A stretch of 64,000 nucleotides of DNA, taken from assembly GCA_964016885.1 (NCBI GenBank), contig OZ024743.1:319734001-319798000 (forward strand), written 5' to 3'. This stretch comes from Eledone cirrhosa (Eukaryota). The notes under the pieces were generated by a model. It ran no database searches. It had not been told where the DNA came from and saw nothing but the letters and a program-made list of their open reading frames with translations. Below, piece after piece: positions 2,408 to 17,627 of this stretch; positions within the stretch are counted from its first letter, which is position 1, and every line of letters starts with the position of its first letter. Both the position numbers and the translations under genes were made by a program.

Positions 2408-2472
2408 ATTTTATCTGATGAGGACGTACTGTTGAACTTAATTCAGTACCTCTGAAATATGTATAATAAAAT
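2408..2472 (+). ncRNA. Type-I hammerhead ribozyme motif (PLE pseudo-LTR type)
   Basis: ATTTTAT-CTGATGA-[GGACGTACTG..CAGTACCTCT]-GAAA-TATGTA-TA-ATAAAAT: 7-bp stem I, intact core, long stem II, near-palindromic stem III. Lies downstream of the + strand GIY-YIG remnant. Confidence 0.75.
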
Positions 2473-2515
2473 TTAATTGATCACAAGAATATGTTTTGTT
2501 AATACTTGGAATTAA

Positions 2516-2640
2516 TATTATATATATATATATATATATATATATATATATATATATATATATATATATATATATATATACAGGCATACATTATATATAT
2601 ATATATATATATATATATGTATATATATATATATATATAT
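2516..2640. repeat. (TA)n microsatellite
   Basis: Directly visible. One of many (TA)n tracts separating elements in 2.5-17.9 kb. Confidence 0.95.
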
Positions 2641-3685
2641 AACTTTGAATATCTTTGAAATGTTTTGGCCAGTATTGGCCCAGGCCATGTCTAACTTAAT
2701 AACACCACCTGGCGAAATCTTTCAATTCAGGATTTGGGCACCATGGCCCATTCGAGAAGAGAATTACTGTTTGCGGAGACATATCCGGGTGTGGATGGTT
2801 TGTCCGGAATTACTTGGAGGAATTTGTCCAAAGACTTCTTGAATTTTGTGTGGTCAGTTTCTGTTTTGACGTGTCCTGGTGTGATGTTGAAGAGAGCAGG
2901 GCCAATTGAGGTGAAATAATTGTGCCGTATTGTTGTTATGAGTTGCGATTTAGATTTTTGTTTGGGACGGATAGCACGGGGCCCAAGCCTTGGGTGTATT
3001 TTGAAGGTGATGCCAACATCATTTGGGCAGTGCTGATGAAACATTTTCCACATCATGCAGATAATATAACGCTCACGGCGACGTTAGAGTGAGTAAAGTT
3101 TCAGCTTTTCTAGTCGACCCCAGTAGTCAAGTTCTGACATGCCATTCTTTTCCGCCCATTGGGTAACAACCAGTAGGTCTGACTGAAGGCTTATCCGGTC
3201 ATCCACGCCATTGATGACCTTTTGGAGCTTGGAATCATCAGCGAAAATTCTAATGTTGGTGTGTTTGATGATGTCAGTGATGTCATTAATATAGATGATG
3301 AAGAGAAGTGGGCCCAACACAGTGCCTTGTGGGGCACCACTACTGACTTTGGCTGGGCTGGATTTGACTCCTTCGACTACAACATGTTGGGTTCTGTTTG
3401 ACAGGAAGCTCTTGATCCACTGCAGTAGCTTTCCAGTGACACCAATATTGGACAGCTTTCTCAGTAGAATGTTGTGATCAACCCTGTCAAAGGCCTTGCT
3501 GAAATCAAGGTAGATAACATCACTGTTGGAACCCTCTCCCAAGGCTCTCAAAATGTCATCAAAGTGATGCAGTAGCTGCGTCAGGCAATACCTTCCATTA
3601 CGGAATCCATGGTGGTTGGAGTTCAGCATATTGTTACTCTCAAGGAAGTGAGTCATTCGCGATCTCACCATTCTCAAATACCTTA
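2641..3685 (-). mobile_element. CR1/Jockey-group LINE RT and 3' end, 5'-truncated with internal deletion
   Basis: Translation contains HGFRNGR, VIYLDFSKAFDRVDH, GAPQGTVLGPLLFIIYINDI and FADDSKL, then jumps to DYWGRLEKLKLYSL and IPDKPSTPGY..SNSLL. Confidence 0.9.
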
Positions 3686-3689
3686 ATGA

Positions 3690-3890
3690 TATGTGTATAT
3701 ATATATATATATATATATATATATATATATATATGTGTGTATGTGTGTGTGTGTGTGTGTGTGTGTGTGTGTGTGTGTGTGTGTGTGTGTGTGTGTGTGT
3801 GTGTGTGTGTGTGTGTGTGTGTGTGTGTGTGTGTGTGTGTGTGTGTGTGTCTGTGTGTGTGTGTGTGTGTATATATATATATATATACAT
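3690..3890. repeat. Compound (TA)n-(TG)n-(TA)n microsatellite
   Basis: Directly visible. Source of the spurious HT/VC/YI ORFs. Confidence 0.95.
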
Positions 3891-4260
3891 AAATGGAAAA
3901 AAATGAAATTTCATTTCTCACTCTTAGTACAGCTGATACTTAAATATAAGTATGTATACGTACATACATATATGTATACAGACGTACAGTAGTATGTATA
4001 TACATACATACATGCACACATAACACATATATATATATGTACGTATGGGTTTACCGAACATTTATTATAATGCTCGGTTTGTTTGTAAACAAACAACGCG
4101 AATTATTAGCCGTACAGTGTTCAGCAACCATCGTTGCCATTTTGTTCAACACTGACAAAGGAACGATGGACAAGTTTCTAGCTTATTAGCTGTCATCAGC
4201 ACCTTATACATTCCTGTCAGTTGATTGAACGTTTGAAAGTATATACTTTCCTTATGCATA
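3890..4260 (-). mobile_element. Diverged partial copy of retrozyme family A
   Basis: Colinear with 16763-17116 (CACTCTTAGTAC, CCGAACATTTATTATAATGCTCGG, GTTCAACACTGACAAAGGAACG, CTTATGCATA). Confidence 0.8.
4164..4204 (-). ncRNA. Minimal type-I hammerhead ribozyme
   Basis: Minus strand reads GGTG-CTGATGA-C-AGCT-AATA-AGCT-A-GAAA-CTTG-TC-CATC. Core conserved and stem I still pairs despite substitutions relative to 17029-17069. Confidence 0.75.
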
Positions 4261-4930
4261 TCTGCAACATCGTCAGTGCTATTATGTTCCTCCTCTTGTA
4301 TTGTATATTTACGCCATCTTTATTTAATCTGTTTACTTATTTATTTATTTATTTATTTTTGTCTTCTTCTCTACGCATGCGTTTGCGTTTGCGTGTGTGT
4401 ATAGTGTTTGGTGTGTGTTCGCGTTTGGGTGACTGTGTTTTGGTTATTGTATTCTATCTTAGTTTACTAGTGTGTGCTTATTGTGCTTGTGTATATATTT
4501 ATTTATATTTCCCTTAAGTCAGTATTGTTTGTTTAGCTTTGGCCTTCTAAACTTGCCTCTGTTTAACTTTGGCCTTCTAAGTTTTATTTCACTTGCCTCT
4601 CTGATTTGCCTATCTGCTGGGTCATTTTTATGTTTAGATATTATTTTATTTCTATGTTGTCTATGTTACCGTCATGTTGTTGTCTGGCGTGTTCGTATAG
4701 TACTGAACCGTTTTTTCATCCTTTTAGTTCCCCCCAGTGTTGGTCTATCCTTTCACCTATGCTACGATCTGTCTCGCCTATGTATGTTGTTGTCATGTTT
4801 CTGCAAGTACCCTCTGTACATCTTATGCTATAGACTACGTTTCTAGTTTTACAGTTTTTCCGGGGGTTTACTTTACATATAATACATTTGTTGATAAGTA
4901 TTCAACAGAGTTATGTCCATAACAGAGATG
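4261..4930 (-). mobile_element. Penelope-like GIY-YIG remnant with pseudo-LTR ending in a half hammerhead
   Basis: Minus-strand translation ~4900-4530: CIICK..CKTRNVVYSIRC..YIGETDRSIGERIDQH..VLYEHARQQH..DPADRQIREASEIKLRRPKLN, with a stop and frameshift. Downstream GCA-CTGACGA-TGTTGCAGA at ~4279-4261. Confidence 0.8.
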
Positions 4931-5289
4931 AAGCACTTGGCAGATAAAATGTATCTGGAGTATTATAATAATAATAGTATTAAATGGAAAATATATCACT
5001 ATAGTATCATCAGTTATTTCGTTATTTATATTTGAGGGATACTAATTTAGACAAAATACAATATTTGATGTATAAAAATGTGACATACCCATAAAATAGA
5101 ACTTATGCTGTCAATTTAAAATGGGTATTTGATTCAAAATCTCAAAATTTCCTAGGATGTAAATTAATTGGGAAAAAACAAATAAACAAATAATAATTAT
5201 GGCCTGGAAAAAGAGGAATATAATAATTTAATATTAAGGGAGCTTAGAAAAGACTACATAAAAACAAGCAAAGAAGATCTTCAACCATT

Positions 5290-15423: not shown

Positions 15424-15458
15424 ACAATTAAATCTCTCCCAAGGTAACTCTGTCTCGT

Positions 15459-15661
15459 GTTATTTTTATTTTTATTTTTATTTTTATTTTTATTTTTATT
15501 TTTATTTTTATTTTTATTTTTATTTTTATTTTTATTTTTATTTTTATTTTTATTTTTATTTTTATTTTTATTTTTATTTTTATTTTTATTTTTATTTTTA
15601 TTTTTATTTTTATTTTTATTTTTATTTTTATTTTTATTTTTATTTTTATTTTTATTTTTAT
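15459..15661. repeat. (TTTTTA)n hexanucleotide array
   Basis: About 200 bp of perfect repeat inside the right arm only. Confidence 0.95.
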
Positions 15662-16301
15662 CCTTTACGCTCTTTCCTTCATTCTTCTACACGCTACAGT
15701 CTTATACACGCCACGCATCTCAACGTACACCCACTTACATCTCTCTCTCTCCACCACCGGATCTTGTTACCCGGAGATTTACCCATCTGCATTGTCGAGG
15801 CTTCCAAACGACTTAAAGAAATTTACCTTATTATTCCACAATGCTTCAAGCAAACTTCAATACTCTCATTTATATATATATATATATATATATATATATA
15901 TATATATATATATATATATATATATATATATATATATATATATATTATATAATAACAACAGTGACATAAACAGGCACTCAAGTTTCGTTGGGTTCTGGGC
16001 CCCAAATCATTCACCTGTCATGAGAAAAATAAAAACAAAAACGACCGCCTAGGGTTGATTGTGCTTTCCTCTTGGGAATATAACCTAATAGTTTTAAAAA
16101 GGGCAGGTAATTTAGAAAATATTTAGAAAAAGGTTGTTTTTTTTATCGATATTCCTTTATGAGTAACAGTCAGATAAAATTTGCCTAGTCTTTCCTCTTA
16201 TTCCGGAGAAATTAACTTGACAAATAATCAATTAAACGGAGCTAAGTCTAAAATGTAAGTTTGAAGAAAAAATAGATACATGTTACCAAATATTCCTCCA
16301 G

Positions 16302-16375
16302 TCCCGACTATCGATAGTTTCGCTCGTACTTTGTGGAAATGTCTAATCGTTGCATTATCCATGAGGATCAGAGAT
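16302..16375 (-). ncRNA. Possible degenerate hammerhead
   Basis: Minus strand CTGAT..CTC [imperfect long stem] GAGC-GAAA-CTATCGATAG-TC-GGGA. Right half is canonical; the left core is damaged. Confidence 0.4.
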
Positions 16376-17028
16376 TTTCAAAAGACTCCCTCAGTTAGGA
16401 CCGAAATTTCCAAATTGATCACTGTTAATAACGAATTCAAAAGGGGGTGAAAAACATCACGTGGCTAGCGGTCAAAATAGAAGTGTTGTGAAGGGTAGGC
16501 CGGTGGCAAGTAAGTTCATTGCTAGAAGAAGCAGTTAGTTACCGCCTAAGTTTTATTCAACCATAGAAGTTATAAAGGCCATATATATATTATAGTCGCA
16601 GATACATATATTAGTGTTGGTTACCTTCAACAGTGTGGCTCGATTAAAGAATGAATTAAATACATAATTGTCAATCAGAACTGTATAAAATTATAAAGTT
16701 TGAAGAAGAGTCAGACAACATTTATCCAATATATATAAATATATATATATATATATATATATAAACGGAAAAAATGAAACGATATTTCATTTCCCACTCT
16801 TAGTACGGCTGTTACTTAAATATAAGTATGTACACGTACATACATATATGTATACCGACGTACAGTAGTATGTATATATATATATACATACATTCACACA
16901 TATATATGCACGTATGGATTCACCGAACATTTATTATAATGCTCGGTGTGTTTGTAAACAAACATCCCGTATTAAGCCGTAGTGTCTAGCAACCACCGTT
17001 GCTCGTTTGTTCAACACTGACAAAGGAA

Positions 17029-17069
17029 CGTTGTACTAGTTTCAAGCTTGTTAGCTATCGTCAGCAACG
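17029..17069 (-). ncRNA. Minimal type-I hammerhead ribozyme
   Basis: CGTTG-CTGACGA-T-AGCT-AACA-AGCT-T-GAAA-CTAG-TA-CAACG. Confidence 0.88.
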
Positions 17070-17586
17070 TATACCTTCCTGCCAGATTGTTGAACGTATA
17101 TACTTACCTTATGCATATTAACGGCTGAGTAGCCCAATTTGCATATCGAGTGGGTTAATCGGCCGGGTGCACCGAAAACAATAAACGGAAAAAATGAAAC
17201 GTTCCTTTGTCAGTGTTGAACAAACGAGCAACGGTGGTTGCTAGACACTAGGGCTTAATACGGGATGTTTGTTTACAAACAAACACACCGAGCATTATAA
17301 TAAATGTTCGGTGAATCCATACGTGCATATATATATGTGTGCATGTATGTATATCTATATGTATATACTACTGTACGTCGGTATACATATATGTATGTAC
17401 GTGTACATACTTATATTTAAGTAACAGCCGTACTAAGAGTGGGAAATGAAATATCGTTTCATTTTTTCCGTTTATCGTTTTCGGTGCACCCGGCCGATTA
17501 ACCCACTCGATATGCAAATTGGGCTACTCAGCCGTTAATATGCATAAGGTAAGTATATACGTTCAACAATCTGGCAGAAAGGTATA

Positions 17587-17627
17587 CGTTGCTGACGATA
17601 GCTAACAAGCTTGAAACTAGTACAGCG
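17587..17627 (+). ncRNA. Minimal type-I hammerhead ribozyme
   Basis: CGTTG-CTGACGA-T-AGCT-AACA-AGCT-T-GAAA-CTAG-TA-CAGCG. Predicted cleavage after A17622. Confidence 0.88.

Follow-up and report, generated by a model that had tools for sequence, protein, structure and literature searches.

How did some eleven hammerhead ribozyme motifs come to lie within about 15 kb of a 64,000-nucleotide stretch of Eledone cirrhosa DNA (this whole stretch, 64 kb in length, is the window referred to below)? We examined the motifs together with the Penelope-like elements (PLEs) and the (TA)n tracts among which they occur. The best explanation, to which we give a probability of roughly 0.78, is that nine hammerhead-bearing insertions entered a (TA)n patch, likely by target-primed reverse transcription carried out by PLE proteins, and that two of the families involved, A and D, are rings without an open reading frame (ORF) that would borrow PLE protein.

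Hammerhead motifs and the insertions that carry them

Using a type I hammerhead descriptor on both strands of the window, with a threshold score of at least 10, we found eight motifs between 2 and 18 kb versus none between 18 and 64 kb, where three matches with one core mismatch were present, all scoring 6 or less. Sixty dinucleotide shuffles of the 2-18 kb part gave a mean of 0.03 motifs and a maximum of 1. These data bear out the first-pass annotation, made from the sequence alone, in its statement that the remaining 46 kb holds no convincing motif, and each of the eleven positions that it had named carries a hammerhead or a hammerhead-like motif on the strand given. Its picture of a cluster drawn from at least five families also stands, but the motifs outnumber the events behind them: self-BLAST revealed that the motifs at 14087 and 15388, and likewise those at 17029 and 17587, are inverted arms of single insertions, so that nine insertions account for the eleven motifs. 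The families represented, five at the least, are A (to which D is related), B, C, E and a Hydra type. The units are as follows, with the strand given as + or -, or as a dot for inverted insertions; identities are to database proteins, named by their identifiers, or to other copies in the window.

3..610, +: remnant of a Hydra-clade GIY-YIG endonuclease with a CxCX5C linker (Pfam GIY-YIG E 6e-4, below the cut-off; 37% to P0152 residues 584-708)
2408..2472, +: type I hammerhead with an AUA triplet; its core, at 2415, is intact, and the predicted cut follows 2465
3889..4261, -: 5′-truncated copy of family A whose long (T) end lies at (TA)n; its hammerhead spans 4162-4206 (core 4199); 79-84% to 16764-17475
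4262..4905, -: 3′ part of a family B PLE, comprising a GIY-YIG remnant (4719-4901), a 3′ untranslated region (UTR) and a half hammerhead with core 4276
4971..6440, +: Hydra-clade reverse transcriptase (RT) remnant 5287-6222, frameshifted, between inverted repeats; 47-53% to P0152, E 9e-63; right end at (TA)n
6603..6941, -: 3′ stump of family B with (TA)n on each side; its hammerhead, 6836-6883, has U in place of G12
7558..8060, -: family D, one complete monomer of 488 nt without an ORF and about 6 nt more (7558-8048), with an inverted arm of 15 nt (8046-8060)
8074..8661, +: unit bounded by (TA)n, at the end of which lies a half hammerhead (core 8640) that has a short stem II and no GAAA
9576..10041, +: 3′ stump of family B with (TA)n on each side; its hammerhead, 9812-9860, is intact (core 9819, CUU triplet)
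11819..13609, dot: Hydra-clade PLE inverted insertion, C-terminal part of the endonuclease at 12614-12994(+); 31% to P0152 residues 653-751; arms 97%
13652..15870, dot: family C PLE inverted insertion, GIY-YIG 14547-14969(+) (Pfam E 1e-6, above the cut-off); arms 13886-14558 and 14954-15803
15946..16580, -: family E, low copy, candidate U3/A8 hammerhead 16300-16387, predicted cut after 16306
16764..17833, dot: family A inverted insertion, hammerheads 17064(-) and 17592(+); (TA)n on both sides

Perfect cores were found at seven places, namely 2415+, 4199-, 7903-, 9819+, 12007-, 17064- and 17592+, and CUGANGA, GAAA and NUH with three helices are present in seven of the eleven motifs. The motif at 6839, already listed as mutated, has G12 replaced by U in its core at 6876(-) and is likely dead. 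A half motif reported at about 4265 was recovered with its core at 4276(-), and a second one, absent from that list, lies at 8640(+). In the six motifs of families A, D and B, 85% of 78 cells were paired, compared with 22-44% in slid controls, and 8 of 13 stem pairs showed two-sided changes, although the structure was derived from the very sequences tested, which favours a positive result. Rfam recovered just one of the eleven motifs (HH9, 7850-7922, 31 of 52 bits, E 8e-4, under the gathering score); its numerous microRNA matches, TA-rich hairpins scoring under gathering, were set aside. A model of six of the motifs gave no match under E 2 in 18-64 kb, this model being weak for the other families (2415 at E 6 only, 12007 unlisted). 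PLE ends with minimal hammerheads and with palindromic helix III are already known (PMC4209133).

Two families depart from the canonical core. The family C pair, at about 14119(-) and 15391(+), reads CAGUUGA in both arms, with U4 and A6, two invariant positions, altered and a stem I of 3 bp; these motifs, listed at 14087 and 15388, are hammerhead-like only. An alternative upstream parse from CUGAGGA was rejected, since it has no stem I and is missing from the right arm, and a possible motif near 13790 was dismissed for want of stem I. The family E motif at 16302 had been listed as degenerate. Its core instead reads UUGAAAA (U3/A8), with a stem I of 6 bp, a GUC triplet, a 4-bp stem II with a long loop, and a stem III that is a 12-nt palindrome; at position 16374, the majority letter of other E copies re-forms the first stem II pair, which is absent from the window copy. 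U3/A8 is a natural, active hammerhead covariation (PMC3088659), and we regard the 16302 motif as a candidate U3/A8 variant hammerhead rather than as simply degenerate.

The four GIY-YIG remnants and the one PLE RT remnant previously noted among the motifs were all confirmed, but one endonuclease (3-395+) lies outside the range of 2408-17627 assigned to them. The motifs of the RT remnant 5287-6222 agree with the Hydra rows in the supplement of PMC8557442 when compared by eye, and in translation the endonucleases at 3-395 and 12614-12994 have a CxCX5C linker, no CCHH, and CxxC and CxH around E and N. P0152 matches the RT remnant as well as the endonuclease remnants 3-374 and 12674-12976; the Hydra pieces in the window are separate RT and endonuclease fragments, whereas this single protein spans both. 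Judged by these sequence features, the RT remnant and the two endonuclease remnants are Hydra-clade PLEs, and a Neptune label for them was rejected because the Hydra definitions fit instead. Pfam gave no match for the three RT pieces or for the 12614 piece. The 12007 hammerhead sits in the inverted arm of the 12614 element, which has (TA)n at both ends. In the left arm the predicted cut follows 11953 and the end is 89 nt longer, while the right arm misses about 400 nt, hammerhead included. The (TA)n next to the 2415 motif starts 54 nt downstream of it; an attempt to tie this motif to the Hydra family of 12007 through its flanks failed (alignment 71 versus a shuffled maximum of 91).

In families B and C, the GIY-YIG domain has two cysteines inside its core and forms the C-terminal end of an RT ORF, as in canonical C-terminal endonuclease-bearing (EN+) PLEs, be they of the Neptune, Nematis or another clade. 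The family C endonuclease (14547-14969) is 44-50% identical to P0001/P0007 and matches the C-terminus of the RT proteins P0001 (44%, RT-bearing), P0007 and P0031, with 1,485 relatives at E 0.001. The family B endonuclease is matched by 55 of 152 proteins and is followed by the 3′ UTR and hammerhead; its 4719-4901 remnant is interrupted by a stop (Pfam E 1e-3, below the cut-off). Placed as it is ahead of a 3′ UTR and half hammerhead of B type, the remnant identifies B as the terminal part of a coding PLE. Coding PLE families with 5′-truncated ends number at least three here (Hydra clade, B and C).

Several side observations concern these coding elements. The Hydra RT remnant is framed by 76-bp inverted repeats (83%; 4971-5046 and 6372-6440), the left of which holds at 5013(-) a solitary CUGAUGA with no other part of a hammerhead, and the whole of 4971..6440 is possibly a deleted inverted PLE insertion. 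At the junction of the 400-nt skip in the Hydra right arm lies a short duplicated filler (13560-13609) whose appearance suggests polymerase-theta-type repair. The right arm of family C contains a perfect (TTTTTA)34 at 15460-15661, compared with 3.7 copies in the left arm, which may be read as a recent expansion or as RT slippage. Tiny pieces like the family B 3′ end adjoin (TA)n at 11470-11500 and 925-960.

(TA)n tracts as the probable target

Tracts of (TA)≥5 are concentrated in the same part of the window as the motifs: of 56 such tracts, 52 are found below 18 kb, and of the 31 that remain when neighbours are merged, 27 are. Five of the 52 are internal tracts of family A. All nine insertions fall inside 15.2 kb of the 64 kb (P 7e-5, or 1e-3 with young LINE, i.e. 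long interspersed element, copies taken out of the target space). Taking as a 3′ end the point beyond which a partner copy runs on, we found six of seven homology-defined 3′ ends within 2 nt of a (TA)≥5 tract, for which the background share is 0.8%, and a short interspersed element (SINE) used as the control had none of its 11 copies at (TA)n. These results support the earlier proposal that autonomous PLEs and non-coding ribozyme units insert, each independently, into (TA)n, with the tract kept on both sides of several units, but the patch is not specific to ribozyme-bearing elements.

The tracts could also be products of the elements, laid down as RT tails, or the cluster could have arisen by local duplication. 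PLE RTs are, as a matter of general knowledge, akin to telomerase, and five of the six TA-abutting ends share 3-5 nt with the TA phase, which blurs the boundary between element and tract. The non-inverted B stumps, however, have (TA)n on their 5′ side too (9534-9575 and 6942-6983), which indicates that the tract is a pre-existing target and not a tail, and against duplication the copies are diverged, belong to at least five families and have no common flanks. We therefore consider self-made tracts or duplication very improbable and retain insertion into pre-existing (TA)n.

Whether the patch deserves the name of hotspot is less settled. The density of insertions might be ordinary for TA-rich tracts, the other 46 kb being filled by LINEs and SINEs with different targets. 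LINE copies indeed make up about 18 kb of those 46 kb; PLEs of Octopus vulgaris are abundant and recently active, with 31 families and 336 recent insertions (PMC13282606); and family A reaches in public data a summed depth about 1e5 times that of locus-specific contigs, a figure that is inflated by short contigs and is no copy number. On the other side stand the nine of nine insertions and the 27 of 31 merged tracts below 18 kb, and at 1e4-3e4 copies two family A insertions per 16 kb would have a P of 0.0005-0.013; over the copy numbers and genome sizes considered, P varies from 0.0005 to 0.11. An ordinary density is quite possible, with the odds leaning slightly the other way; it can be reconciled with PLE-driven insertion into (TA)n and disputes only the word hotspot. 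We regard a hotspot as plausible locally, but as no more than a possibility when set against the high background. Nearly all families of the Hydra clade insert into (TA)n, Hydra-1_Obim of Octopus bimaculoides being among those listed (PMC8557442), so that the mechanism of such a hotspot is largely known; our literature search returned no publication that describes PLEs nested in clusters within TA microsatellites.

Families A and D as ORF-less rings

Following family A (16764-17833) from the hammerhead to the 3′ end and on into the sequence upstream of the hammerhead closes a 424-nt ring. The longest Met-initiated ORF is 38 aa in A and 29 aa in D, with the dimer tested. The long arm, 17201-16764(-), exceeds a single monomer of 424 nt by 14-20 nt; the short arm, 17198-17833(+), amounts to 1.5 monomers, starts about 1 nt past the predicted cut and stops 61 nt before the long end. 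Where the two arms meet, at a short palindrome, about 4 nt are common to both. Family D, with its 488 nt, is a relative of A (score 179 versus a shuffled maximum of 45) and consists of one ring and a few bases, with the 15-nt inverted arm ending 88 nt short. The ring-permuted A and D units form inverted pairs in head-to-head arrangement; the two 3′ ends of a pair lie a tail of 61-89 nt apart and border on (TA)n.

Both monomers fold strongly (z -7.5 for A and -12.1 for D, none of 100 shuffles being equally stable), although TA-rich hairpins contribute part of this pairing. Their hammerheads have an extended helix I like canonical motifs; that of D (7866-7910), in a unit flanked by (TA)n on both sides, is of textbook form. 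In both A and D the octamer ATGCAAAT is conserved and precedes the core by 80-100 nt, at 17512(+), 17144(-) and 8003(-), within a 10-nt exact match, and it may be part of an internal promoter of the small nuclear RNA (snRNA) type. An octamer is reportedly linked to newt satellite 2 transcription.

As regards the retrozyme features, family A has a 424-nt unit, a GC content under 50% and a type I hammerhead, and the 488 nt of D slightly exceed the range of 150-450 bp. Li et al. 2026 ask for a tandem array with two consecutive complete hammerheads (10.64898/2026.07.22.740005). The window holds at most 1.5 A units with one complete motif per arm, and other copies contain the tandem joint in pieces too short for a dimer. 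Judged from sequence, A and D would work like retrozymes, having all the sequence features except a proven dimer; a target-site duplication would be hidden by the surrounding (TA)n. Searches with exact family A patterns gave 0 loci in metagenome contigs, prokaryote genomes and viral contigs. The family A copy at 3889..4261 cuts through loop II of the family B half hammerhead (4276): at 4255-4270 its 5′ end is fused into this loop at a near-match of 6 of 7 letters, and the B 3′ end is lost. One reading of this fusion is 5′ microhomology joining, another an RNA template switch between two ribozyme elements.

We then considered family A in public reads and contigs, which were placed on 15952-17201 (families A and E; 4 of 13 runs listed). 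No RNA run is among the sequencing runs listed. The raw reads come from a reduced-representation library, and the source X1 may be the window's own and is not independent. Summed depth was about 1.2 million for A (median 1.17 million) versus 11-12 for two locus-specific contigs, and about 830 for E; the copies of family A may number roughly 10^4-10^5. Contigs from two other organisms (organism B and organism D) span the A ring junction, and the tandem joint 17201-16786 has a depth of 231 in X1. Among the 12 raw-read joints listed, 10 change strand; seven of these have one side at 16806-16832, the tail interval, and in five the short side starts exactly from 16784, which fits the head-to-head geometry. 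A TA-run loose end at 16820, the short end, is found in 37 contigs among the loose ends listed.

These data also bear on another view of A and D, that they are no more than the 3′ stumps of some abundant autonomous PLE, or infrequent copies of it with internal deletions. Stumps are what families B, C and Hydra represent here, and in X1 the depth upstream of the hammerhead drops as 5′ truncation would make it, from 1.7 million at the ribozyme to 0.43 million in the last bin. A stump, however, does not account for the tail-to-upstream junction, which is seen in both A arms and again in the diverged family D. Furthermore, the contigs spanning the ring junction carry the whole depth of the last bin (71 of 78 in organism B and 105 of 105 in organism D), and there is no loose end at this junction among the 24 of 841 loose ends listed. 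Thus, we think it improbable that A and D are stumps, and the ORF-less ring is preferred.

A mechanism can be proposed on the basis of known PLE integration, the signature of which is a pair of inverted arms with a tail at one end (PMC8557442; PMC3846280). In vitro, the RT of an anole PLE starts at two internal sites, and the sequence separating them makes up the tail; each of the two target strands is nicked and then extended, and insertion can do without hammerhead cleavage (PMC11167929). In the window, a PLE GIY-YIG endonuclease would nick both strands of (TA)n, the RT would begin at two internal sites on an RNA longer than one unit (a tandem transcript or a circle), and the two complementary DNAs (cDNAs) would join at microhomology. 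A and D would provide RNA only, the protein being borrowed, probably from a (TA)n-targeting clade such as Hydra. The hammerhead would cut multimeric RNA to monomers and is probably not needed for integration. Because each insertion splits its tract and leaves (TA)n on both sides, targets would multiply locally.

A far-reaching extension of this model, which we offer as doubtful, is that octopods might harbour a family of ribozyme retroelements that ranks among the largest known, a 424-nt hammerhead circle with an internal octamer promoter that would be copied for more than one round by a Hydra-clade PLE into (TA)n. The twin-primed inverted insertions would then prove that animal retrozymes are parasites of PLEs, and the splitting of tracts would build self-feeding patches and explain in part the TA-rich octopus genome.

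Several observations count against PLE-driven insertion of ribozyme-bearing units as set out above. One of the seven 3′ ends fails the end test (family C, 68 nt from a tract), and this test is optimistic since the ends came from (TA)n-masked BLAST and one of them was placed by eye. The patch also takes in elements other than PLEs (a LINE RT fragment at 2642-3695, palindromic units and a SINE), so it is a (TA)n sink rather than specific to ribozymes, and given the great abundance of family A, chance may account for part of the cluster. Family C spread despite its broken core, and the 6876 motif is mutated; the ribozyme is hence not strictly constrained in every family. The window copy of the E motif folds worse than its shuffles (z +1.9). 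No autonomous partner of A and D was found, and their link to Hydra consists of the shared target and a basal U-U mismatch in stem II that is seen in axolotl retrozymes too. As for the reads, 15 of the 61 joints, 40 of the 240 variant rows and 24 of the 841 loose ends are covered by the data listed. A joint found at the library cut site 17136 may be a ligation chimera, three of the ten strand-changing joints listed share one start place, and just one of the ten is at the predicted cleavage site.

Neighbouring elements and comparison with known systems

Elements without hammerheads were also recorded. Three small (TA)n-bounded palindromic units (8934-9028, 10076-10428 and 9116-9170) have a common GC-rich motif and are perhaps miniature inverted-repeat transposable elements (MITEs) or inverted stumps of another element. 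The fragment at 2642-3695 is a LINE-type RT (Pfam RVT_1, E 1e-20) with (TA)n on both sides. Two neighbouring LINE copies, 20964-26800 and 27001-32100, are 94% identical over 3.7 kb and differ in their ORF1 regions, and an older copy at 56458-59633 stands at 70%; judging by their Pfam domains, they are presumably L1-Tx1-like. Among 78 matches, the best animal-named match of a LINE protein of the window is to Argonauta hians (67%), which makes an octopod host likely. Two non-LTR (long terminal repeat) remnants, 18348-20644 and 32760-34485, adjoin (AAT)n runs and are presumably R4/Dong- or Hero-like. One SINE is present in eleven copies (398-498, 1463-1664, 7225-7399, 17882-18334 and a further seven), for the most part next to (AAT)n rather than (TA)n; the copy at 398-498 splits the 3..610 endonuclease remnant, just outside the motif cluster. 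This SINE presumably resembles an octopus SINE.

The new part of these results is families A and D; the cluster itself is what a target preference already published would lead one to expect, and its interest is modest. The idea that PLEs move retrozymes has so far rested, in the papers compared here, on co-occurrence and on similarity of pseudo-long terminal repeats (pLTRs), and the preprint 10.64898/2026.07.22.740005, dealing mainly with vertebrates, argues on these two grounds that retrozymes are non-autonomous PLE derivatives. A and D add a PLE integration signature on an ORF-less ring present in very many copies, and this insertion anatomy lends structural support to PLE mobilisation of animal retrozymes. 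Family A also offers a short, well-defined RNA, 424 nt long with both 3′ ends mapped and its target known, for testing trans-mobilisation and the role of the hammerhead in the in vitro assay that exists for PLEs. Searches of the open-access literature returned no cephalopod retrozyme or genome-wide hammerhead report beyond the Hydra-1_Obim motif, and the main text of the Octopus vulgaris repeat annotation makes no mention of ribozymes or hammerheads (PMC13282606).

The coding remnants resemble the Hydra-clade PLEs of PMC8557442 in their RT motifs, the CxCX5C linker, the absence of CCHH and the CxxC/CxH around the catalytic E and N, as well as in a hammerhead near the 3′ end, (TA)n targets and an inverted 5′-truncated arm with a tail. 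The fragmentary window copies are of a different family from Hydra-1_Obim (by comparison by eye only), and tails measure 61-89 nt in the window versus the 30-40 bp described for the clade. Hydra hammerheads show a U-U mismatch at the base of stem II (PMC8557442). The U3/A8 hammerheads of PMC3088659 share with family E the change from C3-G8 to U3-A8, and with family A the U-U at the stem II base; what family E has in addition is a loop II some 45 nt long, the 12-nt palindromic helix III and its setting in a (TA)n-bounded animal repeat.

Poseidon PAc of Anolis (PMC11167929) shares with the window insertions two internal RT starts that define the tail, an AT-rich target and extension of both strands; it differs in being autonomous and in a start site not homologous to the target, whereas five of the six window ends overlap the TA phase. 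MRC1 of Chlamydomonas (PMC8557442) is likewise non-coding, has pLTRs and head-to-tail copies and depends on PLE protein; the Chlamys elements are algal and mostly without hammerheads, with 3′ ends held in common with known partners.

Another system close to A and D is that of the animal non-LTR retrozymes, described as tandem repeats of 150-450 bp with circular transcripts; a mussel has about 5,000 of their motifs and axolotl 126,247 (PMC7229834). With these (PMC7229834; 10.64898/2026.07.22.740005), A and D share a non-coding unit of a few hundred bases with less than 50% GC and strong self-pairing, a type I hammerhead with an extended helix I and a palindromic helix III, the tandem junction, high copy number and coexisting PLEs. 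A word search of both main texts gave no inverted junction, tail or microsatellite target. Retrozymes are described there as tandem arrays, while A and D are dispersed head-to-head inverted pairs of 1 to 1.5 units with a tail, lying in (TA)n.

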